This document shows, piece after piece, positions 4,804 through 34,125 of a DNA stretch of 64,000 nt. The first letter of the stretch is position 1, and every line of letters starts with the position of its first letter. Where the stretch lies: the NCBI GenBank assembly GCA_046483125.1, contig JAWODU010000085.1, positions 1,430 through 65,429 of the forward strand, given 5' to 3'. The position numbers and the translations under genes are program-made. The DNA is from Kiritimatiellia bacterium. Lineage in GTDB: Bacteria; Verrucomicrobiota; Kiritimatiellia; UBA8416; JAWODU01. The notes under the pieces are model-generated. The model worked only from the letters and a program-made list of their open reading frames with translations. It had not been told where the DNA came from and did not search any database.

Positions 4804-4813
4804 CCCTTCTCCC

Positions 4814-7150: not shown

Positions 7151-7184
7151 AGGCAAAGGTTATGCGAGACCATAGGGATATGAA

Positions 7185-10878: not shown

Positions 10879-10885
10879 GTAGCAC

Positions 10886-11348: not shown

Positions 11349-11416
11349 GACTCTCCGCATTTGGCCTTGCGGGACTGGCCCGCCGCACCTATACTGCGTG
11401 CTCAGGAAGGCGAACT

Positions 11417-14534: not shown

Positions 14535-14553
14535 GAAGGTCGGAACTGAGGGC

Positions 14554-14680
14554 AGATAACGGATGACGGACGACAGAAGACAGACTACGGACTACGGACT
14601 ACGGACTACTAAGGGAGAGATTATGATTAAGATGTGGGGAGATAAAGATAAAGATTAAGATTGGGATTAAGATGTGAGGC
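14554..14680. repeat. (RGAYNAC)x8 heptamers plus GATTAA/GATAAA tract
   Basis: agataac ggatgac ggacgac agaagac agactac ggactac x3, then agggagagattatgattaagatgtggggagataaagataaag, as at 10914-11000. Confidence 0.85.
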
Positions 14681-15048
14681 GAGAAGGCTTTTAGACAGGA
14701 TCTACAGGATCCTAAGAGCACTGCCCACACTGTCTCTACTGCTTTGCTCTTCTTGCATCGCGGATAAGCGGCGCTACAAAACCTCCAGTACGCCGCCCGC
14801 GATGCGGCAAACCGCGTGATGAATTCCGCTTCCGTAGGATTCGCAAATCGGATCGCAAGCTTGCCGCTTCTACAAGGCCCCGCGGGCTGAGCTGTATTCG
14901 TATACGCGAAGCCCGCGGAAACGAAGCAGAAGCGGTGAGATCGCGGTTCGATTTGCGAACGAAATGCGTGACGCAGGGTGGAGGGCAAGAACAGAGCCCA
15001 AAGACGCCGAACCCCTCCCCCACACGCCGGCCTGCGTGGCGCGGGGGG
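14681..15048. repeat. ~360-nt structured repeat element, copy B (inverted relative to copy A)
   Basis: Long near-identical blocks with the reverse complement of 4444-4803, e.g. ggaaacgaagcagaagcggtgagatcgcggttcgatttgcgaacgaaatgcgtgacgcaggg. Confidence 0.88.
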
Positions 15049-15102
15049 AGGACACACTCCCCTTGACACGAACCTCATTCTCCCACACATTTCTCTGCAT
15101 CC

Positions 15103-18968: not shown

Positions 18969-19025
18969 GGAGACTTTTTGACAGGATCAACCCGCCCCGG
19001 CGGATTAATCCCGTCAAATAGTCCC
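18969..19025. repeat. Compact GACAGGAT-type inverted repeat enclosing a CCGCC-NN-GGCGG palindrome
   Basis: ggagactttttgacaggatcaa-cccgccccggcgg-attaatcccgtcaaatagtccc. Confidence 0.7.
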
Positions 19026-19066: not shown

Positions 19067-19546
19067 GTGCAGGAAAATGATTTTGAACAGGCTGTAAAGC
19101 GTCTTTCCGGACGTGACCCCCGGTACAAGGGCCCGGCGTATTTTTTCGTTAAAGACGCCCTGGCCTATACGGCTAAAGCGCTTGAAAAACCCGTTGAAGA
19201 AGTTCCGGAAAGGCACGTCAGCGCCGCCGAACTGCTGGAGGGGATTAAATCCTACACGCTTCAGGAATTCGGTCCGATAAGCATGAGAATACTGAATTCA
19301 TGGGGCATCTCCCGCACGGAAGATTTCGGCGAAATAGTCTACAATCTCATTAAAGCCGGCTGGCTGAAGCGGTCCGATAAAGACAGCAAAGAAGATTTCG
19401 CGGAAGGTTATGATTTCTATTCCGCTTTCGCCAAACCTTTCAAACCGGCTCACGGACCGGACGACGGAACCGCCGGGTCCCGGCCCCGCGCCGATCCGGC
19501 GCGCAGCCGGGGAAAACGCAATAAGCCGGGAGACCAGCATCGATGA
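19067..19546 (+). CDS. Minf_1886-family protein (PVC-associated hypothetical)
   Basis: RDPRY...AYFFV..AL, HVSAAELLEG, FGP....L..WGI..TEDFGEIVYNLI. Confidence 0.85.
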   Translation: MQENDFEQAVKRLSGRDPRYKGPAYFFVKDALAYTAKALEKPVEEVPERHVSAAELLEGIKSYTLQEFGPISMRILNSWGISRTEDFGEIVYNLIKAGWLKRSDKDSKEDFAEGYDFYSAFAKPFKPAHGPDDGTAGSRPRADPARSRGKRNKPGDQHR

Positions 19547-22179
19547 AGAGAACCGCTCTCCTCCCCGTTCTCGCGGGCCTGTCTTTTCTCTGGGGATGCT
19601 CCGCGGGCCTGCCCAGGCGTTCCGGAATCGCCGAAGAATCCCTGTCTCTCATCAGGAAAACAAATGCGGAGCTTCAGCGATTCTGTCTCACCAACGGTAT
19701 GACGTGCCTCGTCCGCGAAGATCACTCAGCGCCCGTGGTGTCCATCCAGATATGGGCCGGAACGGGTTCGATACACGAAGGCCGCTGCATGGGGGCCGGA
19801 ATGTCGCACGCCGTGGAGCACATGATATTCAAGGGCACCCCGACCCGTCCGCCGGGACGGATTACCGAAGAAATAAACAACGCCGGCGGTAACATCAACG
19901 CATACACCACTCTCGACCGTACCGTCTTTCTCGTTGATATCCCCTCCAGGAACTGGCAAGTAGGACTCGATGTGCTCGCCGACGCGGTGGCAAACGCCTC
20001 CTTCCCGAAGAACGAATGGATCAAGGAACGCGACGTAATCCTGAGAGAATTTGCCATGGGAAAAGACGACCCGGACAGGGTAATCAACAAGCTTCTCTGG
20101 AGAACCGCTTATCGCGTACATCCTTACCGGTTCCCGGTCATAGGCCGCGAATACCTGTTCCGGAAGATCAGCCGTGACGATCTCTCGTCGTATTTTGCGC
20201 GGCGCTATGTGCCGGATCGCATGATAACAAGCGTGGCAGGCGATATCGACGCCGATAAAATACAAAAAGCCCTCGAAAAGGCCTTTGCCGGCTTCGACCG
20301 GGGACCCGGAGAGCCTGCCGTGGTTCCGGCGGAACCTTCCCAGGTTTCGCCCCGCCATGCTCGCCGGACCGGTTCGTATAACGTTTCCAGGCTTGAATGC
20401 GCCTGGCACACGGTCTCTCTCGATCATCCCGACGCTCCGGCGCTGGATGTCCTGGCAATCGCGGCGGGACGCGGAAAAAGTTCCAGGCTTCGGGAAACAC
20501 TTCGCGAGGAACAACAGCTTGTCGACACCATAAACGCGTGGTCATTCACGCCGAGAGACGCGGGGCTGTTCGGGATAAGCGCTTCCTTTCCCCCTGAAAA
20601 GGAACAGGACGTGATCCGGGCTCTTGAAAAAGAAACGGCCGTGTGGCGGAACTCGCTGTTTTCCGAAGCGGAAATTGAAAAAGCAAAACGCATGGTGCTC
20701 AGTTCGGAACTCTCCGACCTGCAGACAATGAAAGGCCAGGCCCGGTCATACGCCATGGGAGAGTTCTACGCGCATGATCCCCGGTTCTCCGCCGCGTATA
20801 TCGACCGCATTTCTTCGGTCACTCCCGATTCCGTGCGGAAAGCGGCGCGCAAGTACCTGATCCCTTCGAACCGCACGCTTGTCCTGCTCGCGCCGGAAGA
20901 AGAAACGGAAGAAGCTGACGTCAAGGAAACGACAATATCATGCACGGATAAGGTGGAGAAAATCGAACTGGAATGCGGCTTTCCTCTCCTGGTGCGTGAA
21001 GACCATCGTCTTCCATTTGTCTATTTCTGCGCGGCCGTCCGCGGCGGATCCATGGCCGAGACTGAATCGGACTGCGGCATAAGCAGACTTACAGCCGACA
21101 TGCTTGTGCGCGGCACGCATTCCCGTTCCAGGCGGGAAATAGCCGAACTCGTTGATGTCCGCGGGGCTAAACTCGTATCGTTTTCCGGTTATAACAGCTT
21201 CGGGCTTAAAGGACGCTGTTTTGCGGCCGACCTGCCTCTCTTTCTTGAACTGCTCAGTGACTGTCTTCTTAATCCCGCTTTCGAACCCGAAGAATTCCGG
21301 AATCAGGTGCGACTGCAGACCTCGGCTATAGACCGACAGTCCGAACAGCCCTTCCTGATGGCCCGCAAAGCCTTGAGAAAACTGCTTTTCAGCCCCCATC
21401 CCTATGCCTGGCTTCCCGTCGGCAGGAAAGAAATACTGCATGAATTGAGCGTAACCGACATCAGGCGCCATCATCACCGGCTCATCAGGTCACCCAATTT
21501 TGTCCTCTCGGTATTCGGGCACGTGGAACCGGCAGAGGTTAAAACTCTTGTCGAGAAATCATTCAGCGGTATTCCGCGCGGTAACGCTCCGCGGATAAGC
21601 CCTCTTCCTCCCGAACCCGATCTGCCGGCGCGCACAAAATCCCGTCTTCCCAGAGAACAGGCCATAGTGCTCGCCGGATTTCCGGGTATAGACGTCGCGG
21701 ATCCCCGGCGCGATGCGCTCGCGGTACTGGAAACGGCAATGAGCGGCCTTTCATCCGACCTCGCCGTTGCCATCAGAGTAAAAGAGGGTTTGGCGTATTA
21801 CGCTGGCGCGTACCAGCGGCCCGGGCTGGACCCTGGCCTGTTCGTTTTGTACGCGGGTACGCGCGAGGAAACCGTGGACAGAGTTCAGGACCTGTTCGCT
21901 GCGGAAATAGAGCGGGTAACTACCGAAGGCATCCGACAGGAAGAATTCGACAGGGCCGTAAACCGCGTGATAGCCGATTACGAAATGGGCCTCCAGAACA
22001 ACCTTGCCCTGGCCATGGATTGCGCCCTCAACGAACTTTACGGGCTGGGGTGTTCCTATAAATTTTCGACGGAAGAACGCATGCGGGCCCTGACGCCGGA
22101 AGATATCAAACAGGCGGCCTCTTCGATCCTCGCGAAAGACAGGATGGCCGTCTCTATCGTGCTTCCGGAAAGGGACTAA
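19543..22179 (+). CDS. M16 (pitrilysin-family) zinc metallopeptidase, lipoprotein
   Basis: Lipobox LWGC, HAVEH (HxxEH), NAYTT, ERDVILRE, two-lobed M16 architecture. Confidence 0.93.
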   Translation: MKRTALLPVLAGLSFLWGCSAGLPRRSGIAEESLSLIRKTNAELQRFCLTNGMTCLVREDHSAPVVSIQIWAGTGSIHEGRCMGAGMSHAVEHMIFKGTPTRPPGRITEEINNAGGNINAYTTLDRTVFLVDIPSRNWQVGLDVLADAVANASFPKNEWIKERDVILREFAMGKDDPDRVINKLLWRTAYRVHPYRFPVIGREYLFRKISRDDLSSYFARRYVPDRMITSVAGDIDADKIQKALEKAFAGFDRGPGEPAVVPAEPSQVSPRHARRTGSYNVSRLECAWHTVSLDHPDAPALDVLAIAAGRGKSSRLRETLREEQQLVDTINAWSFTPRDAGLFGISASFPPEKEQDVIRALEKETAVWRNSLFSEAEIEKAKRMVLSSELSDLQTMKGQARSYAMGEFYAHDPRFSAAYIDRISSVTPDSVRKAARKYLIPSNRTLVLLAPEEETEEADVKETTISCTDKVEKIELECGFPLLVREDHRLPFVYFCAAVRGGSMAETESDCGISRLTADMLVRGTHSRSRREIAELVDVRGAKLVSFSGYNSFGLKGRCFAADLPLFLELLSDCLLNPAFEPEEFRNQVRLQTSAIDRQSEQPFLMARKALRKLLFSPHPYAWLPVGRKEILHELSVTDIRRHHHRLIRSPNFVLSVFGHVEPAEVKTLVEKSFSGIPRGNAPRISPLPPEPDLPARTKSRLPREQAIVLAGFPGIDVADPRRDALAVLETAMSGLSSDLAVAIRVKEGLAYYAGAYQRPGLDPGLFVLYAGTREETVDRVQDLFAAEIERVTTEGIRQEEFDRAVNRVIADYEMGLQNNLALAMDCALNELYGLGCSYKFSTEERMRALTPEDIKQAASSILAKDRMAVSIVLPERD

Positions 22180-22186
22180 CCGGTAG

Positions 22187-22463
22187 TGTCAAAAGTTCCA
22201 TGAACACGGACGAATGACGAGTTGGAACACTTAATCGCACACTTAACTGCTACCCTTTGTCGTATACGCTTAAACGACTCTGTTGCAACGGCTGGCACAT
22301 GACGAGTAAGCAGGTCGGTTAAGGGTGTGCGTCCGCCGCGGCGGAAAGGGTGGCGGTTAAGAAAGCGTTTAAGTGTATTGGGAAAAGGGGGAGAGAGTCG
22401 AAAAACGGCTAATGACCTGAAACAAGGACAGTTACACAGATAAACGTGCTGTCAGCTTTGACA
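22187..22463 (+). mobile_element. MITE-like element copy 1 (TGTCAAA...TTTGACA ends)
   Basis: Positions 22216-22463 are about 97% identical by hand alignment to the reverse complement of 30396-30644. No ORF and no clear TSD. Confidence 0.6.
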
Positions 22464-22491
22464 ATACTGCGACTACAAGGAGGGAAAAATT

Positions 22492-22911
22492 ATGAACGAC
22501 AAACCGGAAAACAAGGAAAACATGGATAAGGCGCTTTTTGCCAACCTGATCATGATGCTGTCATCCTCCGCGATGCAGCAGATGGGCAATACCCCGAATC
22601 CCATAACCCAAAAAACGGAAATCAACCTCGAGGGAGCCCAGCTCACCATAGATATGCTGGAAATGCTGAAAAACCGGACCGAGGGCAATCTTGACGCCGA
22701 AGAGAGCAAAATGACCACCGACATCCTGTCCTCCCTGCAGATGGCCTACGTTCAGGCTTCTCAAACAGAGGGGGAAAAGCAGAACGAAAAAGGAGATGAG
22801 GCGGAAACGGTTCAAGAACCCGCGGACAGCGAAAAGAAGCCCGAAGAAGATTCTTCCGGCGAAGAAAAGGACTCCGGCAAAGACCCAAAATATCACAAAT
22901 CCTACGGTTAA
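22492..22911 (+). CDS. DUF1844 domain protein
   Basis: F..LIMML.SSAMQQMG..PNP......NLE.A...ID.L.ML..RT.GNL..EE. Confidence 0.85.
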   Translation: MNDKPENKENMDKALFANLIMMLSSSAMQQMGNTPNPITQKTEINLEGAQLTIDMLEMLKNRTEGNLDAEESKMTTDILSSLQMAYVQASQTEGEKQNEKGDEAETVQEPADSEKKPEEDSSGEEKDSGKDPKYHKSYG

Positions 22912-23058
22912 TTTCTTTTTCTTGTTGCCCCCCGGCTCCGCCCAACGTATTATCTGCCGCAAATCGTCCGCGGCCGTCGGCGTCCGCGGATCGGGATTCC
23001 CCCGGAAAGGAACCCTTTGCGGAGGGGTTGTGTTAACACATCAACGTGAGGAGCCATT

Positions 23059-23397
23059 ATGGGTATTGCAGCTCTCATTATCGGTATTGTGGCCGTAGTA
23101 CTGGGTTTTATTCCTTTTTGCGGCTGGTTTGCCCTGTTGCCCGCTGTAGTAGGACTTGCCCTCGGCATAGCTGAAATCTCGGTTAAGTCAAAAAAGGAAC
23201 AGCCTAAGGGCATGGGAATCGCGGGTCTTGTTCTTAACGGCGTGGCTATAGTGGTAATTCTCGTTTGGACGCTGGTTATTGCCGCGGGTGCAACAAAGGC
23301 GGCAAAAGAAGCCAAAGCGGAAATGGAAGCCGCCGGGGTCACAAACCTCCAGCAGATGATCGAAGAGGCGCAGGAAGTCTCAACGGCGACCAACTGA
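23059..23397 (+). CDS. DUF4190-like small membrane protein
   Basis: GIAALIIGIVA...GLALG.....K...KGMGIAGLVL. Confidence 0.75.
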   Translation: MGIAALIIGIVAVVLGFIPFCGWFALLPAVVGLALGIAEISVKSKKEQPKGMGIAGLVLNGVAIVVILVWTLVIAAGATKAAKEAKAEMEAAGVTNLQQMIEEAQEVSTATN

Positions 23398-23400
23398 CTC

Positions 23401-23811
23401 TTGTCTCGATCTTACAGGTCGGCAAACATGACAGTGCTGGGCCTGGTTCTCTATTGCCTGGCACTGCCTTTTTTATCGCCCTTCTTCTCGCGAATACTTC
23501 CCGACTGCCTTACGGCCTGCCCCTTTAGAACTCTCACGGGAAATCCCTGCGCCCTCTGCGGACTTACGCGCGGATTAAGGGCGCTGATAAACGGAAACGT
23601 AAAGGAGGCGGTGTCTCTTAACCCCCTGTGCGTACCGATAGCGGTATTGCTTTTTTTCGAAGCAGTGTTCAGATCGACAATGCTGATTCTTTCGCGCTAT
23701 CGGGAAATACCCGGCCGTGTGATACGACTGGACCTGTTGTTTCATATCGCGCTTCTGGCGACATACCTCGCCTATACCTCGGCATTCGCTCTCAGTACTT
23801 ACGCGTACTAA
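23401..23811 (+). CDS. DUF2752-family membrane protein (start 23401 or 23428)
   Basis: CPFRTLTGNPCALCGLTRG...A..LNP. Confidence 0.85.
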   Translation: MSRSYRSANMTVLGLVLYCLALPFLSPFFSRILPDCLTACPFRTLTGNPCALCGLTRGLRALINGNVKEAVSLNPLCVPIAVLLFFEAVFRSTMLILSRYREIPGRVIRLDLLFHIALLATYLAYTSAFALSTYAY

Positions 23812-26800
23812 GGGCCCGGTACGCCACAGTCAGCACCAGCGCGATCAACAGGCCCGCACCCCACCTCAGCATTCTGCCGCCGCTCATTTTGAAACTTACA
23901 ACCATGTCCGCTTCCGGATCCGTCTGCATGCTTCGCCTGAACATGAGTTTCCGGCCGTGAGTGGGAATTGTTATTTTTATGGCCTGCGCGCTCCTTTCGG
24001 CCGCCGCCTGCTGATCCATTATGCGTTCAGAAAGCTTCAGAAGGCTCGTATTGTCCCTCTCGGAAAGCGACTGCTGGATTCTGTTGGCGTACTCGGCGGT
24101 GAAGTTGCCCTGCCTGAAGTCCTCTATCCTGGCCACCTGGCCGGCCTGCTGTATGTTCTTGTCGAACCGCATCTTGTCGCGTCTTTGAACAAGTCCCACC
24201 AGCGCCTGCTGTTTGGCAAGGTTGCGGAACTGGATCCTGGCGTCCTCGTTAAAGGCCAAGTCGTTTTGGGACCAGTTTACGGCCGACTCCAGGGCCTTGC
24301 GCGCCAGTTTCTGCTGTCCCTGTTGTGCGTACTTCTCCCCCTTGGCCAGCACAGATTTAGCCTTTTCCTGTTCCTCTGCAATCTTGCGCAGATTGCTGAT
24401 ATTGTATTGCTGTCTGGTAAAAGCCTGGAGGACCGGTTCTTTGTCTTCGACAGGGTTCATGGTGCCGCCGAACCCATAATACAGCCTTCCCGGCACTACG
24501 TAAAACGTCCATTCTATGTCCTTCTTGAGCGGCAAACCGAACTTCGGCGCCTTGTACGAAAGCCTGCTGGAATACCATTTCCCCGGCGAAGGACTGACGT
24601 AGACCATTTCCACTTCGGTTTTCTCACCCGGCACCGGTTCTTCCAGAGGGATCCTGTACACCCCGCCCTCCTCCGAAACCGAAGCCGCCTTGCCGTTTAC
24701 GAAGGCCGACCACAGTTCCGAACCTTCTTCCGGCAGTTCTATCTCCAGGAAGCGCAGGTCCCCCACCGTCATCTCCATGCTGACCCTGGTCAGTATATCT
24801 CCCTGGCCGGATACCACCGACGTCAGTCTTGTACTGCTTACTTCGGCGGGAAGCACCTCAGCCGCTCCATGCCGTATGACCGAAAGGTCCAGTTCATACT
24901 CGCCGCCTATTGTACGGAAACAGTATACGGCGTCCGACAGGTCCCCTGCCCCGAAATACCCGGGGACGGACCGGGAATCCTCCCTCTTAAGGCCCGCCGG
25001 CGTTCCCGCCGGACGAACCTCAGCTCTCCCTTCGGACATGACCGCGAGGTAGCCTTTGCGGCTTTCCACATCAAGCGGCACGATCGCCCGGATTTTTCCC
25101 GCCTGTGTCGTCTGGTACCGGGCCTCAAGCTGGTAGTCGTTCAGGACCTTGTTGTGAAGTTCCACCTCCCATATTCCCTTTTCCCTGTCGGCTTCATGCA
25201 CTTTCGCGATGTCGCGCCCGGTCATTGCAAGGGAAATACCGGGAGCCGGGGCCTTCAGCCGGAAAGTCTTACAGCCGGCGTGCTCAATCCTGTAACGGAC
25301 ATAGGCCGTGCCCCGCATCTTTCCCTCGGACAGATCCACCCTGTGAAGGACTTCGGTCCTTATTGTCGGCTCCACCGTTTCGGCCTTCAGTTGAATCATC
25401 CATTCCGGCCGAAGCAGTTTGAAAGCGAGCGCGCCGGTCTCCCTTATTCCCAGGTCCCGCGGATTCATCTCGCTCACGCCTTTGCGCATAACCGTACTCA
25501 TGCGCACCCCGCGCTCTCCCCTTACAACCATCTGTCCGGTGTGCTTGAGAGCGTCCTGTACTGCTATACGCGGCACGTATATCGTCTCCTCCAGTCCCTT
25601 CTCAGTCCGCGCGGCCACGACGTTAAGCGTCCGGTCGCCCAGCGCCTTTTTCCTGAAATGGACGATGACTTCCCTGGGGGTCCTGCCGTCGGCTTCACCT
25701 CCCACTTCATCCCAGTGACTCACGTCCTGGCCGGTCAGACTCTCCACGTCATATTCGTCCGGTATCCCGAGGCGTACCGAGAATATCCCGGCTTTACTTA
25801 TGCCGACCTTCAGGTGGGTGGAGAGGACTATCCGTTCGTCGGACACCGACATACTGCCGTTTTCCGCCACTCTCAGTTCCGGAAGCACCCTTTCGGCTGT
25901 CACCTTCCCCGAAGCGGGCGTTTTGTGATAGCGGAAAGCTCTTTTGATTTCCGGCACTTCCTTCATTCGCGCCGCTGTGCCGACCTCACGAACCAGCCGC
26001 TCCGAAACGTCCTCGATATTCATCGGGTGCAGTCCCTCTGTTTCACTGACAAGTATTTTCACGTTGCCCGGCACAGCCAGGGCCATCGAGCCTCTCTGCC
26101 TGACCGCGTCTTTCACCTTCAATATTCCGGCCTGAACTTTATACGGAAGACCCTCGCATCCGACCTGGCTTACCACGTGAAGCGTGAAGTCACCCGTAAC
26201 GGGTTTATCCACGATAGCCTCCAGCAGGCGTGTTTCCGGATCGAAGCGCCATGTACTCAGGCCCGGGGCTTTCACCGCCGTTACCGTCATATTCTCGGGC
26301 ACCTCAACGTTCATTGATTTCAGTTCGCCCTGGGCAATCTGGTATTTCACCAGGTTCGTAAGCTCGACTACCCCCGGCTGAAACACCGCCATGGTGTTCA
26401 GTTCAGAGAAGAAAACGACCTTTTCCAGCCTGGTTTTGCGCGCACGCGGCCGCCATGAGATAAATGCCTGTCTTGACATACCGTACACGGCAATAGCCTC
26501 CGTTACGTCTTCCTTCTCCGTAGTCTTGAACAGAACCGCGTCCGGCGATTCGACTTCAAGCTCGTTTTCCGGAATCTCGAGTTTCACCCTGTTTTTCAGA
26601 TTAGGAGGAATCCTCAAGCCGAGAAACCACGCACCCTCTTTTTCCACAAGGGGCAGAGAATACTTCAGATTGATTTCGTAATCTCCCCTTTCCTCAACCG
26701 TAAGCACGTACCCGTTCACGTCCGTGCGGAGCTGGAGGGCGGAAGAATTCAGATCGTAATCCGTAAGCACGGCCGGCGGTCTCAGGACGACAAACTCACT

Positions 26801-29800
26801 GCCCTTACGCCCTTCGAATTCATATACAGCGTCCACCCTCGCGCTCTTTTCCGCTTCTTCAGTCATTTCAGGCGCCTTCACCTGTATGTTCACTTCTTTC
26901 ATCGCGGGAAGTACGTCCGTTTCAGCCTTGTCTAAGGGCTCTCCAGCCGCCCAGCCCAGCGAGGCACCGATAATACCGATGGCCACAAGGCATGATATGG
27001 TGCCGTGACCTTGCTGGTGCCGGTCCGGTTCTTCCGGCTCGTCGAACCGGTCCGGCTCCACGGTGTCTTCCGTTTCCTCCTCAAAAGGCATCCCATCAAG
27101 AGGCGCTTCTTCGGAAGGCATTTCAGGAGGCCCGGCGGGAGCCGGTCCCGCCGGAACGGGGCGCCGTGTCCCGGCCGCGTATGCCGCCTTTACAAGGCGC
27201 AACACAACCGCGACAGCCACACCCACAGCGAACATGATCGTTATCAGGTTGCGGCCTGTTTCCAGTTGCGCCAGCCCGAATGTAAGAAGCGTAAAACCAA
27301 GTGCCGTGCACCAGGCCCTGCGCTTCCGGCCGGACCTCCCCTTCAGAATAAGCCAGAGAGAAAGCACGACGGCGACAACCGCCCAGAGGAGCGAGCTGTC
27401 CGCTCCTATCCATTCCGGTACCAGGCGCAGATCCACGGCAAGCGGTTCTGCTCCTTCGAGATTAACTGTCCTTGAAACGGAAAAACTGCTGCCGGCCGCC
27501 GGCCCGCGAAAAACGTCCACGGTTCTCTCAAGGCCGCTCCACATCCGGCCCAACTGCCACAACCCTCCCGCGAACAACACGGTTATCAGCGCGACCACGC
27601 CGAGGGCTCCCTGCCATCCGAACCCTCTGCCCCGGCCGGTATTGAAGGCCACAAGGCATGTAAACAGGACTGCCGCCAGCGCGACAACCGTCCACCCCGC
27701 GAAGTCTGTCAGGGCAATTCCGTACAGCTTCAGCATATTGCGCAGGGCTTCCACTATGCCGCCGGTCCATATCGACATCGCTCTGCTCATGTTTCCCCCC
27801 GCCGTACCTACGGTGTATCCTTCGGGAAGGAAAAACTCCCATTTCGCGAAGGTATTCGGTGTATTTCCCGTTACGGGGGCAAGAAACCTCATGCTTTTCC
27901 CCAGAGCCCCGATTTCGTCCCTGCTCCGCGCGTATACCACCTCGACCCGTACAGGCTCGTTAGGGTTCCTCAGCCGCCGCACCGGAATAAGAATGCGGCC
28001 GTCTTCCTTGAGTGCCGTTACTTCCGTCTTTTCTTCATTTGCATTTATAAGAGAGGTCGACCACAGGTTCGCCTCCTCGGGAATTGAGACAATCAGGTAC
28101 TGACGCGAAAGGTTCTTGACCGAATATTCCGCCGTAGTCACCGCCTCGCCGTCTTTGCTGATTCTCGTTGACAGCATTGTCAGATCCACCACGGCGTCAA
28201 GAAGGCGTTCTGTTTCGTAGCGCTTGATGCCGATTTTCGCGGTATGCGGATGCCCGGTGTACTTGTAAGCGTCGAGAATCGGATCGTTCACCAGAAGAGT
28301 GTAGGCCTCGGGCACTTCATCACGATCGACCTTTATTATGGATTTGTCGCGTTCCTGAAGCGTCAGGTTCAGCGCCGCGGCCCCCGCAAGCATGATATAC
28401 CCCGTCTCGGTGGTGGTCTCCACGGTACTGACCCCTCCCACTGTCACCTCGTCGGCCCTGTAAGCGAATTTTCTGTCGTAGGTAACTCCAAGCGTATAGT
28501 CTCCCATTACCTTTTCCTGGAGAGATATCTCCCACACTTCGCCGTCGTGTTTCCAGCCGCGCACGTCTCTGCCCGTAAATTCCACGTTCTGAAACTCTTC
28601 CGGTATTCTTATCCTGAAAGTCTTAACGGGCGCCCCGGCAATGTGATATGTGGCCGCGGAACTGCAGTAGAGCACTCCTTCCCCTATGGACACCAGGTGG
28701 AACAATTCGGAGTGTATGGTTGGTTTTGTTCTTTCGAACTTCACGTCAAGCGACCACTCGCCCTCCTTGTACCGGTAAGCGAGCTGGGCCCCGGGCACTT
28801 TCACGGGGACCGATCCGGTTTGAACTTCCCGCAGTTTCCCGGTTTCGCACTTTTCTATCCTGAGGCCCTTTTCCACCGACAGAACCAGGTAGCCGCGCTG
28901 TGATTCAGAGTCCCTGATCACGAAAGCCGGCGCCTGAAACCGCGTCTTGTCCCCCGGAAGCGACTTTTCAAGCCGCACGTTTACCAGTGTCCGTCCTGTT
29001 ACGGCGTCCCGGAAAAACACGCTTATTTCACGTTTGCCGTTCCTGGTACGAACGTTGTAATCCGAAAGCGCCGCTCCGCTCACGTTGGCCACGATCCAGT
29101 CGGGGTCCGTCTCTATAACGATCTCCCTCGCCGGTGCGTCACGCACGTCAAGTTCCACCGAAGCCGCCAGTACCAGGTCGCTGTCCTTCACGGACAGTAC
29201 AAGCTGTTCGTTACTGCTGTATTCCGAGACAATATCGTCGATGGAAAGTTTGAGTGTATAAGGCACGTTGGCGTACTGGTAGGCGAACCTGCTCCTGGAC
29301 GGCAGTGTTCTCCCGCTTTGTTTCTTTCCCTCCAGGGCCACTTCCGGAAACGACGTCTGGTCCACCTGAGTCAGTCCGAGCGCCTTGTCCACGAGCAGTT
29401 TAATCGCGCTGTCAGTGCCCAGCATGAGGAACCCACTGCTCCGGATTACCCGCCGGGGAATAATCACCGGGAGTTCCAGTTCGCAGGGAAACTTGGGCAG
29501 AACCGTTTCGCTTTCCACCCTCAGCATATAGTCCTTTTCCTTCGGACGGCTCAGAGTCACCAGGAGCGTGCGCGCCGCCTCGCCTTCCTTTTCCTGTATT
29601 ACCCAGTCCTGTATATCCTCGCCGCGCACCTGAGTGACGCTCAGTTCCTCCGGAAGCCTCAGAGGAATCTCTTTAAGACTGCCCTGCACGACACGGTATG
29701 TGAATACGTTGTCTATTTTGAGCGCTCCCACGCTCGCCGACGCTATTGTGTTGGCGTCGCACGCCACCACCAGGTCGGCCGCGAGTTTCTTCACTTCCGG

Positions 29801-30367
29801 CTTCCATTTCACGTTGAAACTGCCCGCCAGCCCCAGAAACGCGGTTACTTCCATGTCCCCCTTGTCCGTTTTGACGCGCTCGACGTTCAGCGCGCCCGGA
29901 AAGCGGATTTCGAGGTCATCCCGGTCGCACAGAATGGACACTTTTCTTATGTCGGCGCCCGGAATGGAGAAACTGGCAGAGCGCCAATCGCCTTCCCTGG
30001 CGGCCCTTCCCGCGAATTTGAACTCTACCGTCCGTTTTCCCGAATCGAAGCTCCAGAAACCGCCCTTACGCTTCATTTTGAGAATATACCGGTCCGACCC
30101 GCGGATAAGCTCGGAATTCGAAGGAAGATCTCCTTCCAGGTAGGCCACATCTCCTATTAAAAGCGGCAGGCTCACGGCGTCCTGCTCAAGCTCTGCCGTA
30201 AACGAAAGCGTGAAAGTGATATTCTCGCCTTCTATCCTGCCGTCGAGCTTCAGCCCCGATATTTCCACTCCTTCGGTCCGTGGAAGCGCTTCCTTTTGCC
30301 CGCGAGCCCAAGCACCCGCCGGCGCCATTAACCCCGCCAACGCTATTACCGTAATCAGTCTTTTCAT
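23792..30367 (-). CDS. Giant (2191 aa) secreted/membrane protein of two homologous halves with repeated beta-sandwich-like units
   Basis: Uninterrupted ORF with N-terminal signal (AWA), SD AGGGAG, a central multi-TM block, a C-terminal TM and an internal duplication. Confidence 0.9.
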   Translation of the reverse strand: MKRLITVIALAGLMAPAGAWARGQKEALPRTEGVEISGLKLDGRIEGENITFTLSFTAELEQDAVSLPLLIGDVAYLEGDLPSNSELIRGSDRYILKMKRKGGFWSFDSGKRTVEFKFAGRAAREGDWRSASFSIPGADIRKVSILCDRDDLEIRFPGALNVERVKTDKGDMEVTAFLGLAGSFNVKWKPEVKKLAADLVVACDANTIASASVGALKIDNVFTYRVVQGSLKEIPLRLPEELSVTQVRGEDIQDWVIQEKEGEAARTLLVTLSRPKEKDYMLRVESETVLPKFPCELELPVIIPRRVIRSSGFLMLGTDSAIKLLVDKALGLTQVDQTSFPEVALEGKKQSGRTLPSRSRFAYQYANVPYTLKLSIDDIVSEYSSNEQLVLSVKDSDLVLAASVELDVRDAPAREIVIETDPDWIVANVSGAALSDYNVRTRNGKREISVFFRDAVTGRTLVNVRLEKSLPGDKTRFQAPAFVIRDSESQRGYLVLSVEKGLRIEKCETGKLREVQTGSVPVKVPGAQLAYRYKEGEWSLDVKFERTKPTIHSELFHLVSIGEGVLYCSSAATYHIAGAPVKTFRIRIPEEFQNVEFTGRDVRGWKHDGEVWEISLQEKVMGDYTLGVTYDRKFAYRADEVTVGGVSTVETTTETGYIMLAGAAALNLTLQERDKSIIKVDRDEVPEAYTLLVNDPILDAYKYTGHPHTAKIGIKRYETERLLDAVVDLTMLSTRISKDGEAVTTAEYSVKNLSRQYLIVSIPEEANLWSTSLINANEEKTEVTALKEDGRILIPVRRLRNPNEPVRVEVVYARSRDEIGALGKSMRFLAPVTGNTPNTFAKWEFFLPEGYTVGTAGGNMSRAMSIWTGGIVEALRNMLKLYGIALTDFAGWTVVALAAVLFTCLVAFNTGRGRGFGWQGALGVVALITVLFAGGLWQLGRMWSGLERTVDVFRGPAAGSSFSVSRTVNLEGAEPLAVDLRLVPEWIGADSSLLWAVVAVVLSLWLILKGRSGRKRRAWCTALGFTLLTFGLAQLETGRNLITIMFAVGVAVAVVLRLVKAAYAAGTRRPVPAGPAPAGPPEMPSEEAPLDGMPFEEETEDTVEPDRFDEPEEPDRHQQGHGTISCLVAIGIIGASLGWAAGEPLDKAETDVLPAMKEVNIQVKAPEMTEEAEKSARVDAVYEFEGRKGSEFVVLRPPAVLTDYDLNSSALQLRTDVNGYVLTVEERGDYEINLKYSLPLVEKEGAWFLGLRIPPNLKNRVKLEIPENELEVESPDAVLFKTTEKEDVTEAIAVYGMSRQAFISWRPRARKTRLEKVVFFSELNTMAVFQPGVVELTNLVKYQIAQGELKSMNVEVPENMTVTAVKAPGLSTWRFDPETRLLEAIVDKPVTGDFTLHVVSQVGCEGLPYKVQAGILKVKDAVRQRGSMALAVPGNVKILVSETEGLHPMNIEDVSERLVREVGTAARMKEVPEIKRAFRYHKTPASGKVTAERVLPELRVAENGSMSVSDERIVLSTHLKVGISKAGIFSVRLGIPDEYDVESLTGQDVSHWDEVGGEADGRTPREVIVHFRKKALGDRTLNVVAARTEKGLEETIYVPRIAVQDALKHTGQMVVRGERGVRMSTVMRKGVSEMNPRDLGIRETGALAFKLLRPEWMIQLKAETVEPTIRTEVLHRVDLSEGKMRGTAYVRYRIEHAGCKTFRLKAPAPGISLAMTGRDIAKVHEADREKGIWEVELHNKVLNDYQLEARYQTTQAGKIRAIVPLDVESRKGYLAVMSEGRAEVRPAGTPAGLKREDSRSVPGYFGAGDLSDAVYCFRTIGGEYELDLSVIRHGAAEVLPAEVSSTRLTSVVSGQGDILTRVSMEMTVGDLRFLEIELPEEGSELWSAFVNGKAASVSEEGGVYRIPLEEPVPGEKTEVEMVYVSPSPGKWYSSRLSYKAPKFGLPLKKDIEWTFYVVPGRLYYGFGGTMNPVEDKEPVLQAFTRQQYNISNLRKIAEEQEKAKSVLAKGEKYAQQGQQKLARKALESAVNWSQNDLAFNEDARIQFRNLAKQQALVGLVQRRDKMRFDKNIQQAGQVARIEDFRQGNFTAEYANRIQQSLSERDNTSLLKLSERIMDQQAAAERSAQAIKITIPTHGRKLMFRRSMQTDPEADMVVSFKMSGGRMLRWGAGLLIALVLTVAYRALSTRKY

Positions 30368-30395
30368 ATCGGCCTTTCTCCCTTTATCTTCGTAC

Positions 30396-30679
30396 TGTCA
30401 AACCTGACAGCACGTTTTTCTGTGTAACTGTCCCTTTTTTCAGGTCATTAGCCGTTTTTCGACTCTCTCCCCCTTTTCCCAATACACTTAAACGCTTTCT
30501 TAACCGCCACCCTTTCCGCCGCGGCGGACGCACACCCTTAACCGACCTGCTTACTCGTCACGTGCCGGCCGTTGCAACAGAGTCGTTTAAGCGTATACGA
30601 CAAAGGGTAGCGGTTAAGTGTGCGATTAAGTGTTCCAACTCGTCCTACATCCGTTTTTGTCGCGGTAGAACTTTTGACA
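30396..30679 (-). mobile_element. MITE-like element copy 2 (inverted copy of 22187-22463)
   Basis: Near-identical reverse complement with the same TGTCAAA termini. Confidence 0.6.
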
Positions 30680-30736
30680 ATGCCTTTATCTCTTTCCGAT
30701 TTCCGGCTTAGTGCGAATAGCCGCATCTAAATCCCG

Positions 30737-33496
30737 TCAAAACTCCCCTCTCGCCATCCCGTTCGCTCCCTCTACCATCCTCACAAGCTCCTGCACCCTT
30801 TTATCCAGATGAAGTTCAAGCGACACCGGTCTCAGCACCCTGGCAACATCCTCATATGTGCTTCCCGCCGCGTGAGGACACCCCCGCAGTATTTCCGCGA
30901 ACTCCGCGACCCCCGCCGCAAGCTTGAAACGCGCGTCCATCCTGTTGAAATCGCCGGCCACGTCCGCGCCTCGCAGGGCCTTTTCTATTTCCTCCACTTC
31001 GCCGGTATCCATTCTTCTGTATCTTACACGCACCGTGGCAATAGCGTCCGCGTCGCTGCCCTTGAGTTTTCCATCCCGGAATTCCATCTCGTAGAGAGCC
31101 GTAACCGACTGGCCCGAACCCACTTCCCCGGCGTCAACCGTGTCGTCCCGGAACTGCTCCTTCCTGAGCTGGCGGTTTTCATATCCAAGCTGGCGGTAAC
31201 GCTTTACTTTCCGCGGGTTGAATTCCACCTGTATTTTCACGTCCGACGCGATCGTATTCAGGGTGGCGGCCATGTTGTCCACCAGCACACGTTTCGCTTC
31301 TTCTTTCGAATCGATAAAGCTGTAGGTTCCGTCGCCCTTGTTGGCCAGCTTCTCCAGCATCTCGTCGTTGTAAGTCCCGATACCGAACCCGAAGACCGAA
31401 CAGTAAATGCCCTGTTTCCTGTAATCGCTGATCTGCTCCAGTATGTCCTCGGCCGCGCCCGTACCCAGGTTCGCCGCCCCGTCCGACATGACCAGCACCC
31501 GGTTCGCCGCCCCGCCTTCGAAAGCCCTGGCCGCCTCAGCATAAGCCGTCCTCATGCCTTCTTCCAGGTTCGTGGAGCCCGTTGCGCGCAGGCGGTCCAG
31601 CGCCCCGAATATTCTTTCCTTTTCCGAAGCCGGGATGTGCGGAAGAACCAGCCTCGAATCAGAGCCGAAACGTACAATGCCCACCCTGTCGGAAGGCGCC
31701 AGTTCCGACACCAGCATCCTGACCGATTTCCTGACAAGCTCCATTCTGTCCGGCGTGTTCATGGAACCCGACGAATCTATAACCAGAGTCAGTACCGCCT
31801 TCTGCTGTTCTTCTCTGCCGAGGCGCTTGCCCTTGACACCGATTTTCATCAGGTACAGCCCACGCCCGAACTCCGAAGGAGCGCACTGGAGGTACACCCT
31901 GAACGTGTCCCTTTGCGGCGGATCGTATGCGTAATCGAAGAAGTTCACGAACTCCTCGGTGCGAACGGACTCAGCGGGAGGAAGAAAACCCCGCGTCATG
32001 TAATTCCGCGACAACGTGTACGAGGCGGTGTCGACATCAATGGCAAAAGTCGAAAAAGCCCGCTCCGAAGCATAGTAGAAAGGATTAACCCCGACAGCCC
32101 TGAACCGCGCCCCCGTTTCTTCCGGTTCCTTCGGTTTTGCTTTTGGCTCCTGTCTTTTGTAGAAATCAATACCTACTTCAATGTCTCCGGAATCCGAAAA
32201 GTCGACTTTTTCATTACCCTTGTTCACAATAACCGGGCTTTTGACTAAAGCCACCGAGTTGAAATCCGCGGGCTTGGGGCTGAAATCCGTAGCCGGGCCC
32301 GCGAACCTGGTCGGCGGCGATTCTTTTCCTGCCTTCTCACGGGATTCCGTCTCCGTGCGCTTCTTCTCTTCGAATAATCTGCCCTGAATCGGTATACCAC
32401 TGATCGCGGAAGCATGTTCGCCGTCCCCAGGCCGTCCTCCTGCTTCTCCCGACATGCGGCCCGTAACTTCTTCTCTCCTTCCATCCCTCTCAAGCCGGTC
32501 TGCATCCATCCGACGATAAATCTGCTCGGAAGCCCCATCCATGGTTTCCGCCAGCTCTGCCTCAGCCGGTGTCCCTGCATGCCAGAAGAAATCCTTCTTT
32601 TCGGCCTTTTGCGCCGATTCACCGCCTTCTGTGACTTCCTTCTGTTGTACGCCCGAATCAGCATTGGCTCTCTTCTTTTTTCCCGCAACGGCACTTCCCC
32701 GCGCGCCCGAGCTTCTTGATCCGAAAATGCCCTTCATTATCACCGGACTCTTAACGATGCTGTCCTCCAGGTCCGGGAATTCTTCCATCTCTTCAGCCGG
32801 CGCGGGCTCGCTCGGTAACGCCGCGCCTTCCTGCGCCGGCGCTTCCCGCTCCGGCCGCGATGCGTCCAGCTCGAAGGAAACAGACATATCCGCGCCCGCC
32901 GGTGCGCCTCCCCCGCCGCCGCCGAATCCTGTTTCCCTGTCATCTTCCCGCACTTCATGCGCTTCGCGTAAGGCCCTACGCTTCCGATGCCTTGCCTTCT
33001 CACTTCCTTCAGCTTTCCTGCCTGTATCGGGGCCTTGCAGTGTTGCCCGCGCGGATTTTGGAGCCCTGTATCCGGCCGTACTGCTGTCTGCTACCACTTC
33101 ACCCATCTTGAAAGTAGCTTTCATCATCGACGGAACCAGAATCCCCGCGAATACAAATGTCAGGAGCAGACATGCGGCGGCGGCAGTCAGGACGGGATGC
33201 GACGAAAACAACCAGTACACAACCCTGCTCCCGCCCTTCCGTCGGGCTCCTGCCTTCGCCCCGGGCAAGGCATTTGTTATTTTCTGCCGGCGGGAAACGG
33301 ACAGATGCTCCGGTGCTTTGGAAGGCGGCTGTGCCAGGGCATCACGCAACAGATCGAGGGTCGGCTCGATTTCCCGCATGTATGCCCGGCAGTCGCCGCA
33401 CTTATCCAGATGCGCCTTCACCTCCGCGGCGGTCTTCCCGTCAAGATCCCCCAGCAGATACGCCGTCAACTTTTCTCTTATTTCTTCACACTTCAT
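30737..33496 (-). CDS. ZAS (zf-HC2) anti-sigma domain - TM - long linker - YfbK-type vWA module (vWF_A + vWA + DUF3520)
   Basis: HLDKCGDC (HxxxCxxC), TM helix, STFAIDVDTASY, MIDAS DSSGS...TN...SDG, IASDVKIQVEFNP, AGEVGSGQSVTALYE. Confidence 0.9.
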   Translation of the reverse strand: MKCEEIREKLTAYLLGDLDGKTAAEVKAHLDKCGDCRAYMREIEPTLDLLRDALAQPPSKAPEHLSVSRRQKITNALPGAKAGARRKGGSRVVYWLFSSHPVLTAAAACLLLTFVFAGILVPSMMKATFKMGEVVADSSTAGYRAPKSARATLQGPDTGRKAEGSEKARHRKRRALREAHEVREDDRETGFGGGGGGAPAGADMSVSFELDASRPEREAPAQEGAALPSEPAPAEEMEEFPDLEDSIVKSPVIMKGIFGSRSSGARGSAVAGKKKRANADSGVQQKEVTEGGESAQKAEKKDFFWHAGTPAEAELAETMDGASEQIYRRMDADRLERDGRREEVTGRMSGEAGGRPGDGEHASAISGIPIQGRLFEEKKRTETESREKAGKESPPTRFAGPATDFSPKPADFNSVALVKSPVIVNKGNEKVDFSDSGDIEVGIDFYKRQEPKAKPKEPEETGARFRAVGVNPFYYASERAFSTFAIDVDTASYTLSRNYMTRGFLPPAESVRTEEFVNFFDYAYDPPQRDTFRVYLQCAPSEFGRGLYLMKIGVKGKRLGREEQQKAVLTLVIDSSGSMNTPDRMELVRKSVRMLVSELAPSDRVGIVRFGSDSRLVLPHIPASEKERIFGALDRLRATGSTNLEEGMRTAYAEAARAFEGGAANRVLVMSDGAANLGTGAAEDILEQISDYRKQGIYCSVFGFGIGTYNDEMLEKLANKGDGTYSFIDSKEEAKRVLVDNMAATLNTIASDVKIQVEFNPRKVKRYRQLGYENRQLRKEQFRDDTVDAGEVGSGQSVTALYEMEFRDGKLKGSDADAIATVRVRYRRMDTGEVEEIEKALRGADVAGDFNRMDARFKLAAGVAEFAEILRGCPHAAGSTYEDVARVLRPVSLELHLDKRVQELVRMVEGANGMARGEF

Positions 33497-33567
33497 AAAT
33501 CACCAGCGCCCCGGCCCTGTTATACCCCGTCTTTTCCGGCCTTCCTGTAAAATCTTTCCCTTTCGCG

Positions 33568-34125
33568 TTATTTCGCGCCTTTCGCAGTTCCTTCGGCTCC
33601 CTGCACTTTCTCCGCCATCTTTCTCACTGCGTGATGCAGTATATTCCCCACGTTGCCCTCGCTCCTGCCCGTCACCTCGCTTATTTCCCTGTACGACATT
33701 CCGTGCTCAAGACGCAGAAGCAGAACCTGCTGTTCTCTCGGCAACAGCGCCTTCAGATGTTCCAGCACCAGCGCCTTCCGCTCGTCTTTGCCGGGACAGT
33801 TCCTTCCGTCCGGACAGTCATCCTTTTTTTCCTCGGCGTGCCCTCTGTACAGTTTCTGAAGCCGCGATTCCCGCCTGATAAAATCCACCGCCTCGTTATG
33901 CGTAACCCGGTAAAGCCAGCTTTTCAGCCCGGCCGAAGGCCGAAGACCTGGTTTCCAGGCCCTGAAAAGCTTGATGAACACGTTCTGAACCACGTCTTCG
34001 GCAATGAAAGGGTTGTTGGTGATTCGCGACGCGTAACGAAGAAGCGGCGTTTCGTGCCGGGCCACAATCGCCTCCATGCGGGCCGCCCTGCCCGCGGCAT
34101 CTTCACCTCGTTTCGTACCTTGCAT
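33568..34125 (-). CDS. ECF RNA polymerase sigma factor
   Basis: AEDVVQNVF, KSWLYRVTHNEAVD, region 4 LLPREQQVLLLR...SYREIS. Confidence 0.93.
   Translation of the reverse strand: MQGTKRGEDAAGRAARMEAIVARHETPLLRYASRITNNPFIAEDVVQNVFIKLFRAWKPGLRPSAGLKSWLYRVTHNEAVDFIRRESRLQKLYRGHAEEKKDDCPDGRNCPGKDERKALVLEHLKALLPREQQVLLLRLEHGMSYREISEVTGRSEGNVGNILHHAVRKMAEKVQGAEGTAKGAK

Follow-up and report, generated by a model that had tools for sequence, protein, structure and literature searches.

What were two nearly identical inverted elements doing on either side of a 7.9-kb segment, each placed 28 nucleotides (nt) before a start codon? This question was raised by a 64-kb stretch of DNA from contig JAWODU010000085.1 of a Kiritimatiellia bacterium, which is referred to here as the window. 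A preliminary description of the window proposed a possible invertible phase-variation switch and, as a fallback, a recently duplicated MITE (miniature transposable element with inverted repeats) or a shared leader. The results of our computational analysis provided no positive support for the switch, and the fallback was close to what the evidence showed, namely, a dispersed, structured repeat in leader position. We consider it probable, although far from certain, that the element is a modular, formerly mobile repeat similar to the BOX and Correia repeats, that it landed in two operon junctions, and that it is now carried there as an intercistronic leader.

Two inverted copies of a composite element precede convergent genes

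A repeat search of the window returned inverted arms at 22203-22427 and 30433-30657 (225 nt, 96% identical) and at 22420-22467 and 30392-30439 (48 nt, 90% identical). When the core at 22218-22467 was placed against the reverse complement of 30392-30642 in a gapped pairwise alignment, 242 of 250 positions matched (8 differences, 96.8% identity) and the longest identical run was 123 nt, in agreement with the claim that the elements are near identical. A 45-nt core probe found no match in any of 100 shuffles, and the gapped pattern of the element termini likewise found none (0/100). The ends of the copies had been placed at TTTGACA. This motif was present, but conservation ran 4 nt further, through TGACA(A/G)TAC (22467 in the left copy and 30392 in the right copy). 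The sequence CTGTCAGnTTTGACA was located near the end of both copies, the last letters of which read CTGTCAGnTTTGACA(A/G)TAC, and the similarity ended abruptly 3' of TAC. On the 5' side of the core, from the first conserved box to about position 22218, the copies were only about 60 to 65% identical and differed by a 6-nt indel, and weak similarity continued 5' to about position 22167, which is within the final codons of the upstream gene.

The left copy, c1, extended from 22183 to 22467 on the plus strand and was located between the stop codon (22177-22179) of an M16 peptidase gene (19543-22179) and the start codon of a DUF1844 gene (22492). The right copy, c2, extended from 30392 to 30684 on the minus strand. 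It was located between a gene for an anti-sigma-like protein with zf-HC2, vWA, and YfbK_C domains (30737-33496, minus strand), which is preceded by a gene for an extracytoplasmic function (ECF) sigma factor, and the start codon (30367-30365) of a gene for a 2191-residue protein, referred to here as the giant gene. The segment between the arms (22468 to 30391, 7.9 kb) contained the DUF1844, DUF4190, and DUF2752 genes on the plus strand, which converged on the giant gene on the minus strand. The description of 28 nt with a Shine-Dalgarno sequence between the inner end of each element and the start codon was accurate, as TGACA was followed by exactly 28 nt and an ATG in both copies. Specifically, the end of c1 was followed by a 24-nt nonhomologous spacer and the ATG at 22492 (22468 to 22494, plus strand), with AAGGAGGG as the Shine-Dalgarno sequence of DUF1844, and the end of c2 was followed by a 24-nt spacer and the ATG at 30367-30365 (30365 to 30391, minus strand), with AAGGGAG as that of the giant gene.

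Related elements lie at a near-constant distance from unrelated genes

An exact 22-mer from the hairpin apex of the element had no matches (0) in genome and metagenome contig collections, from both of which the source organism is absent. A pattern that consisted of the termini only, with a free interior of 240 to 270 nt, found one related element in a metagenome-assembled genome (MAG) of an uncultured Victivallales bacterium (locus L009), and four other matches looked like chance. A pattern built on the 3' block found three further elements in three Joint Genome Institute (JGI) metagenomes (loci L014, L015, and L017), together with one chance match. The L017 locus was identical in three samples. 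No matches were found in three pattern scans of viral contigs. Thus, six independent copies were known (c1, c2, L009, L014, L015, and L017). The four related elements were found in other bacteria of the Planctomycetes-Verrucomicrobia-Chlamydiae (PVC) type, and each was intergenic and present as a single copy within the 3 to 8 kb of surrounding DNA examined.

The most conserved part of the element was a 3' domain of about 100 nt. Outside the columns fixed by the search pattern, the identity of this domain to that of c1 and c2 was 75 to 80% for L014, 55 to 61% for L017, 49 to 53% for L015, and 44 to 46% for L009. The 3' domains of these four loci were 57 to 86% identical among themselves, and the 100-nt domains aligned gap-free apart from one single-base gap column. 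A covariance model of the 3' domain (R1) matched only the known copies in about 280 kb of fetched PVC loci. The element did not match any Rfam family. At the gathering level, the only match in the window was a tRNA gene at 63782-63855 on the minus strand (Rfam 15; 68.8 bits), and a relaxed Rfam search of the left copy, L009, L014, L015, and L017 yielded only subthreshold matches to generic microRNA hairpins. As judged by these comparisons, the element family appears to be new and sporadic in PVC bacteria of the Kiritimatiellae/Lentisphaerae type.

All six copies were co-directional with the downstream gene. In five of the six, the distance from TGACA to the ATG was 27 to 29 nt; the values were 28, 28, 27, 29, and 28 nt for genes encoding DUF1844, the giant protein, an alpha/beta-hydrolase, a xylose-isomerase-like TIM-barrel protein, and a sulfatase, respectively. 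Thus, the spacing seen in the window recurred before unrelated genes. This result was not circular because the search patterns contained nothing 3' of TGACA. The exception was L015, in which the ATG at 28 nt opened an open reading frame (ORF) of only 13 codons and the real gene started 113 nt away. The functionally unrelated downstream genes argue against a riboswitch or another gene-specific leader, and orthologues in relatives lacked the element.

A simple cause may account for the orientation bias. In c2, the antisense strand scored as terminator-like, with a stem followed by a T-rich tract, and the antisense strand of c1 looked similar by eye but was not flagged. Such a sequence would be polar within an operon, where copies in the antisense orientation may not be tolerated. 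No comparably simple cause accounts for the fixed offset.

The element combines a variable hairpin with a conserved 3' domain

The element was composed of five parts. The first was a 5' box, (G)TAnTGTCAAAAGTT, of which L009 and L014 had an intact version and L015 and L017 a degenerate one. In the window, this box read TGTCAAAAGTTC, opened both copies (22187-22198 on the plus strand in c1; 30679-30668 on the minus strand in c2), and was complementary to the 3' TTTGACA. The second part was a hairpin of about 85 to 150 nt that was made of internal units of about 12 to 13 nt and always paired. This hairpin was found at 22227 to 22376 (plus strand) in c1, where the arms were TTAA-containing units of about 12 nt, ACACTTAAnCGC, and the apex was the subhairpin TCCGCCGCGGCGGA; the corresponding module of c2 was found at 30484 to 30633 (minus strand). 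The hairpin arms were unrelated between organisms, as the units were ACACTTAAnCGC in the window, GATTAAGGCGAAA-type in L009, and ACGAGAnCGGCG-type in L014, L015, and L017. The apical CGTCC motif was kept in the hairpins of all copies. The third part was the conserved, purine-rich 3' domain, which was located at 22368 to 22467 in c1 (plus strand, with a Shine-Dalgarno-like GGGGGAG at 22387-22393) and at 30392 to 30491 in c2 (minus strand). The fourth was a terminal stem-loop, GTGCTGTCAGnTTTGACAGnAC, which read GTGCTGTCAGcTTTGACAaTAC at 22446-22467 (plus strand) in c1 and was located at 30413-30392 (minus strand) in c2. The fifth was about 24 nt of local sequence with a Shine-Dalgarno sequence, followed by the start codon of the next gene.

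The predicted RNA folds of c1 and c2 were dominated by the hairpin of about 150 nt, with energies of -103 and -112 kcal/mol and z scores of -6.1 and -7.0, respectively. The hairpin stretch at 22220-22385 had a predicted energy of -74 kcal/mol as RNA from the plus strand and -52 kcal/mol as its reverse complement. The sense strands of c1 and c2 folded 28 to 30 kcal/mol better than the antisense strands, the difference was 11 kcal/mol for L009, and the remaining copies showed little difference. The modeled difference between strands suggests that the sense RNA may be under selection. In the 3' domain, conservation was at the sequence level, and no covariation was seen. By eye, the apical CGUCC(A/G)CC could pair with a downstream GUGGAC/GGCGGA, with one compensatory change, as a candidate pseudoknot that competes with the top of the long stem.

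A simple scan for the sigma-70 consensus found no site inside either element. Several other known signals were considered and rejected. A Bacteroidetes-type TAnnTTTG promoter was rejected as an explanation for CAGGTTTG because this motif was depleted in the window (8 observed versus 21 expected). Inspection by eye for sigma-54 sites (-24/-12 boxes), ECF-type sites (GGAAC..CGTC), LexA-type sites (CTGT-N8-ACAG), integron attC sites, retron noncoding RNAs, and IS110 bridge RNAs showed that the motif was not conserved in the six copies or that the partner genes were absent. TGTCA-N4-TGACA was also rejected as a stand-alone operator, as no other sites were present in the window or the fetched loci.

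Relatives retain the gene junctions but not the element

We compared the two junctions in the window with those of relatives; the named protein matches came from Kiritimatiellae, Lentisphaerae, and Verrucomicrobia MAGs. The exact DUF1844 protein of the window had no record and the window proteins had no near-identical copies in the protein collections, where the closest nonself homologues were 60% identical for DUF1844 and 56% identical for the giant protein. The giant protein had been labeled a surface protein. It is not a variable surface protein; it is a hypothetical protein of conserved length (about 2170 residues) that was found throughout this group. As a side observation, the module of an ECF sigma factor, a zf-HC2 anti-sigma factor with vWA and YfbK_C domains, and a protein of about 2170 residues with a signal peptide and no Pfam domain (23792-34125 on the minus strand of the window) was conserved across Kiritimatiellae and Lentisphaerae MAGs (L006, L007, and L022), with more than 200 homologues at 40 to 56% identity and constant length.

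The junction between the anti-sigma/vWA gene and the giant gene was kept in four relatives, and the junction between the M16 and DUF1844 genes was kept in three. In L006, the order was ECF, zf-HC2, vWA, and giant gene, with a vWA-to-giant gap of 40 bp. In L022, the closest relative (56% identity), an upstream gene was followed by the giant gene after a gap of 24 bp, and the gap upstream of the giant gene was 230 bp in L008. L001 and L003 carried HIT, a 145-residue ORF, M16, and DUF1844 in that order. A single contig, L007, contained the full convergent layout in the assembled orientation without the element: the genes for LeuRS, HIT, an additional protein, and M16, a 20-bp gap, and DUF1844 on one side, and the giant gene, a 124-bp gap, and the vWA and ECF genes on the other.

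Covariance-model searches found no element in the gaps upstream of the giant genes of L006, L007, L008, and L022, no element was present in the 20-bp M16-to-DUF1844 gap of L007, and alignment and covariance-model searches revealed no homology to the element in the M16-to-DUF1844 gaps of L001 and L003. Similarly, two relatives of the L017 sulfatase (82% and 72% identical) had upstream gaps of 93 and 7 bp and no element. Thus, empty sites were present at orthologous junctions in relatives, which were distant (46 to 82% protein identity for the genes used). Because both junctions were kept in relatives, the assembled orientation is ancestral. In their native arrangement, the DUF1844 and giant genes form the distal cistrons of tight units that resemble operons, and the elements of about 285 bp were added in this lineage. 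The two copies are inverted relative to each other because the two genes downstream of them converge.

Further observations were made at these junctions. The M16-to-DUF1844 gap was also long in L001 (9713-10000, 288 bp) and L003 (6998-7254, 257 bp), where the sequence was unrelated to the element, and the L001 gap contained an (ATGC)n run and had an unusually stable predicted fold (z = -3.6). Inserts may land at this junction repeatedly. In the region upstream of the giant gene, CGTTACAGGnGTGTTACACA was common to L007 (6350-6400) and L008 (290-325), and the 9-mer GTTACACAG within this region was also found in the 3' domain of the element (22432-22440 in the window), which may reflect a shared regulatory motif or chance.

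The inverted copies are very unlikely to form a dedicated switch

The conserved junctions bear directly on the proposal that a recombinase flips the 7.9-kb segment so that the HIT-M16 and ECF/anti-sigma units alternately drive the DUF1844-DUF4190-DUF2752 genes or the giant gene. The geometry of this proposal was sound: the arms are inverted and 96.8% identical over the core, and each separates an upstream unit from a ribosome-binding site that is itself outside the homology. A crossover within the arms would exchange the upstream units and leave the two ribosome-binding sites in place. The 123-nt identical run fits such a design, and ongoing gene conversion would be consistent with the patchy identity (96.8% in the core versus about 60 to 65% in the 5' part). 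In addition, inversion has been reported for Correia elements, as have effects on neighboring genes (PMC10969869). However, both junctions in the assembled orientation are ancestral and operon-tight in relatives, and the gene-order comparison, which was limited to distant relatives, revealed only the assembled orientation and no flipped order. Pfam scans of about 50 ORFs across the 64-kb window found no invertase or integrase and, specifically, no Phage_integrase, Resolvase, Recombinase, transposase, or Y1 transposase domain, which agreed with the earlier statement that no invertase gene was visible. The arms of 285 bp were about 10 times longer than the repeats of known invertons, which are 10 to 40 bp long, and bracketed four whole genes rather than a promoter. 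Moreover, for none of the four related elements from other organisms was an inverted partner found in the surrounding 3 to 8 kb, and the window contained a second, unrelated inverted pair with copies 10 kb apart, which suggests that inverted pairs are common in this repeat-rich genome. A programmed switch is therefore very improbable, and we conclude that the element is not a dedicated site-specific inversion device. GC skew at 18 to 36 kb was also considered as a sign of recent inversion and was rejected, as the skew merely tracked the coding strand.

Site-specific invertible elements such as fimS, hin, and the Bacteroides capsule promoters have repeats of 9 to 40 bp, usually surround a promoter of about 0.2 to 1 kb, and have a tyrosine or serine recombinase nearby. 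The pair in the window resembles these systems in that inverted repeats bracket a segment whose orientation would change gene expression. It differs in the length of the repeats (285 bp), the length of the segment (7.9 kb), the number of genes enclosed (four), and the lack of a recombinase in the window.

A misassembly would also produce an inverted pair, with one arm or the orientation of the segment arising from a mis-join at the repeat. In a de Bruijn graph, a segment enclosed by inverted repeats that exceed the assembler's k-mer in length has no unambiguous orientation, and the longest identical run was 123 nt. However, the copies differed at 8 core positions and had distinct 5' parts and flanks, and the gene order and orientation at both junctions matched those of independent relatives. 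An artifact of this kind is extremely improbable.

The two copies could instead be a passive substrate for RecA-dependent crossover, which would yield a low-frequency inversion polymorphism without a selected function, while gene conversion keeps the cores alike. An identical run of 123 nt is well above the minimal homology for RecA-dependent recombination, and the copies, which are 7.9 kb apart, are 96.8% identical over 250 nt. At about position 22218, identity rises abruptly from about 62% to 97%, which resembles the edge of a conversion tract, and MITEs have been described as hot spots of homologous recombination (PMC10969869). On the other hand, two conserved operon junctions would be disrupted by an inversion, against which selection would probably act. 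Passive inversion or gene conversion between the arms is mechanistically plausible, but we consider it rather unlikely that it occurs at a detectable frequency.

The 3' domain contains a possible 18-codon frame

The conservation of the 3' domain and its constant distance to the main start codon would be explained by termination-coupled initiation at a short reading frame. In L015 and L017, an 18-codon frame with an ATG start was intact and encoded the peptide MANPLQKRELDKKECCQV* (at 1979-2035 in L017), and in L009 an intact 18-codon frame with an ATG start encoded MASPLQERELNKKESCQL*. The frame in these ATG copies was preceded by a Shine-Dalgarno-like GGGGAG/AAGG, and its TGA stop was the TGA of TTTGACA in the terminal stem-loop, about 30 nt before the main AUG. 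In L014, ACG took the place of ATG and the frame was otherwise open. The frame of c1 ran from an ACG at 22405 to the TGA at 22459-22461 (plus strand) and had a TAA at 22441-22443, which is codon 13. The frame of c2 (30455-30396, minus strand) also started with ACG (30455-30453) and contained a +1 frameshift from an extra G.

A portable regulatory leader would follow from these observations if the 3' domain encoded an 18-residue leader peptide with its own Shine-Dalgarno sequence that was coupled to, or gated, downstream initiation. Such an upstream ORF (uORF) would account for the fixed spacing, and the copies in the window would be degenerate versions. In L009, L015, and L017, the ATG, the frame length, and the TGA were kept without indels. 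The L017 and L009 frames differed at 10 nt in 9 codons; four of the codon changes were synonymous (three of them first-position changes in Leu or Arg codons), and the rest were conservative. Among the three frames, the ORF frame had the best mean BLOSUM62 score (2.99 versus 2.32 and 1.81) and the most synonymous codon changes (10 versus 7 and 5). In addition, the distance to the main ATG (27 to 29 nt) was tighter than the distance to the main Shine-Dalgarno sequence. In contrast, the start codon was ACG in L014, c1, and c2, and inspection of the 13 upstream codons of L014 by eye revealed no alternative in-frame start. The early stop codon in c1 and the frameshift in c2 also count against this reading, and the statistical edge of the ORF frame was modest and came from three independent sequences. 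Furthermore, coding did not explain the invariant GTCGAGA between the Shine-Dalgarno-like sequence and the ATG, and the downstream genes were functionally unrelated. Taking both sides together, we regard a leader peptide as unlikely.

A broader version would treat the element as a portable expression leader, made of a structured 5' module, a short translated frame, and a stem-loop at the stop codon, that is installed or retained only about 28 nt before the starts of arbitrary genes in Kiritimatiellae/Lentisphaerae. Through initiation coupled to termination or to structure, it would set the translation or stability of the downstream cistron, and the two inverted copies in this genome would also permit a RecA-mediated swap of two operon heads. 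We consider this combination quite doubtful.

Termini, flanking repeats, and dispersed hairpin modules as possible signs of past mobility

The observations that may speak for mobility were the empty sites in relatives, the short terminal repeats, and the direct repeats that flank two copies. Short terminal inverted repeats of 7 to 11 bp with mismatches, (G)TAnTGTCAAAAG at the 5' end and CTTTGACAnTAC at the 3' end, were found in c1, c2, L009, and L014, and the 5' ends of L015 and L017 were degenerate. Written as a consensus, the terminal repeat reads (G)TAnTGTCAAA. The preliminary description had reported no clear target-site duplication. We found that c2 was flanked by a perfect 9-bp direct repeat, AGATAAAGG (9/9), with its right-hand copy at 30389-30381 in the spacer and its left-hand copy at 30691-30683; this match was equaled in 22 of 2000 shuffles, and its status as a target-site duplication was ambiguous. 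L014 was flanked by the direct repeat CGGAAAACTG (10/10), which was equaled in 4 of 2000 shuffles.

The c1/c2 pair was not the sole occurrence of the element in the window, as the central hairpin module recurred at two positions, for a total of two full and two partial copies in 64 kb. The first solo module, H1, was located at 3570 to 3720 (plus strand), and its segment at 3659-3717 was 88% identical (59 nt) to 22320-22378. H1 was located between two minus-strand ORFs, that is, on the strand opposite the flanking genes. The second, H2, was located at 11008 to 11175 (plus strand), was about 75 to 79% identical to the apex and 3' arm of c1, and was enclosed by other repeat modules within a 540-bp mosaic, downstream of a gene of the FtsW/RodA family. 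Neither module had a 5' box or a 3' domain. Both carried the apical TCCGCCGCGGCGGA/AAGGGTGGCG motif of the element's hairpin. A whole-window repeat scan indicated that the intergenic regions of this genome were mosaics of several repeat modules. By analogy, such mosaics of dispersed modules resemble the behavior of BOX-, BIME-, and Correia-type repeats (PMC3049150; PMC10969869).

Several points weigh against a formerly mobile repeat. The terminal inverted repeats were only 7 to 11 bp, and convincing flanking repeats were found in only two of the six copies, the other four having repeats of 6 bp or less. Moreover, the c2 repeat AGATAAAGG resembles the GATAAAG unit of another repeat module (10960-10990) and may not be a target-site duplication. 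Neither an autonomous partner element nor, in the 64-kb window, a transposase was found. A MITE that inserts at random does not predict the offset of 27 to 29 nt to the start codon. The 3' domain was far better conserved across distant hosts than the hairpin, which looks like functional constraint, possibly on a coding frame, rather than the signature of a selfish repeat. Finally, the family was defined by only six independent copies, and the source genome was represented by this contig. The mobility of the element is something that we infer, and the same is true of its transcription, processing, and regulatory effect.

Other repeats in the window

An unrelated repeat family, X, of about 370 nt was about 88 to 98% identical in blocks and was located at 4441-4810 (minus strand) and 14676-15047 (plus strand), with a partial copy at 11209-11350 (plus strand). 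The two longer copies formed an inverted pair, 10 kb apart, that bracketed the mreC/PBP2/FtsW-RodA region. Family X had its own long internal hairpin and overlapped two predicted ORFs, 4399-4815 and 14599-15432, both without a Pfam match. G/A-rich 7-nt tandem runs (GATGACA or GGACGAC), followed by GATTAAG or GATAAAG units and GGGGAG, were found at 7041-7154, 10852-11009, 11150-11219, 14548-14687, and 4401-4441, and the TTAAG units of these runs were similar to the arms of the hairpin in L009.

A recurrent motif, ATCCTGTCA(G/A)AAAA, was found at 9652-9665 (plus strand) and at 54311-54324, 56676-56689, and 18974-18987 (minus strand), with variants at 4783, 11221, and 14688. This motif was often preceded by tandem (G)ATCCTGTA, had 17 matches with up to 3 mismatches versus 8.9 expected, and was located 20 to 86 nt upstream of the FtsW/RodA-family gene, trpD, and trpE. 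Its CTGTCAAAA core resembled the 5' box of the element.

Comparison with known repeats and biological meaning

The BOX elements of Streptococcus pneumoniae (boxA-(boxB)n-boxC), together with RUP and SPRITE, are modular, structured intergenic repeats that are cotranscribed, are thought to affect expression, and transpose rarely, if at all (PMC3049150). The element described here is like BOX in that its 5' box and 3' domain are conserved and enclose a variable hairpin made of repeated units, and in that the hairpin module is also found by itself. It is unlike BOX in that the two have no sequence similarity and occur in different phyla, BOX has not been reported at a fixed distance from start codons, and the 3' domain is conserved across distant hosts, whereas BOX is essentially restricted to one species.

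Correia elements have terminal inverted repeats of 26 bp and a TA duplication. In contrast, the terminal inverted repeats of the new element were 7 to 11 bp, its putative duplications were 9 to 10 bp, and the simple consensus scan found no sigma-70 site in it. Correia repeat-enclosed elements are nonautonomous Neisseria MITEs of 100 to 300 bp that are found mostly just 5' of genes, are transcribed, form hairpins, and can influence expression (PMC10969869). They have been reported to invert, to act as recombination hot spots, and to carry outward promoters (PMC10969869).

Repetitive extragenic palindromic (REP) sequences are 20 to 40 nt long, carry a GTAG or CGTC head, and are associated with RAYT transposases (PMC3733652). 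As with REP, BIME, and REPIN sequences, extragenic palindromes were found in the window at high density, in mosaics, and in both orientations, as illustrated by H1, which is opposite to its flanking genes. An apical CGTCC was also present. However, the hairpins in the window were about 85 to 150 nt long, the element had long nonpalindromic conserved parts, and no RAYT gene was found in the window. Putative mobile promoters, or promoter reuse, have been described as highly similar upstream regions before nonhomologous genes, sometimes across taxa (PMC3575422). The element shares the similar upstream sequence before nonhomologous genes and the spread across taxa. It differs in that no promoter was identified, at least two copies are inside an ancestral operon junction, and the structured module is large.

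The account that we favor is that of a BOX- or Correia-like repeat carried as an intercistronic leader. The element would be a nonautonomous mobile repeat of the BOX, Correia, or MITE kind, now or formerly, that occupies two intercistronic gaps of ancestrally tight, co-directional pairs, namely, M16 to DUF1844 and ECF sigma/anti-sigma-vWA to the protein of about 2170 residues. Because it lies inside two ancestral operon junctions, the element is almost certainly transcribed, and it would be part of a polycistronic mRNA. Any effect would then be at the RNA level, where the element could act as a leader of the downstream cistron through stability, processing, or translation. As a side effect, the segment could occasionally be inverted by RecA-type recombination over the identical run of 123 nt.

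These findings have consequences for how the locus and the family are viewed. The candidate phase-variation switch does not hold and should not be counted as a new inversion system. Repeat pairs such as c1/c2 and family X may leave the orientation of the enclosed segments ambiguous in metagenome assemblies of these genomes. The element represents the first description of a structured intergenic repeat family in the poorly studied Kiritimatiellota and Lentisphaerota, and it is unusual for its class in having a 100-nt domain that is conserved across distant hosts and a near-constant offset of 27 to 29 nt before unrelated genes. If the offset reflects target choice, it would point to a mobilization mechanism that recognizes ribosome-binding regions. 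If the offset reflects function, either as translational coupling through the leader frame or as a 5' stabilizer, the element would be a natural "plug-in" leader, which would be interesting both for understanding how PVC bacteria regulate their genes and as a principle of design.

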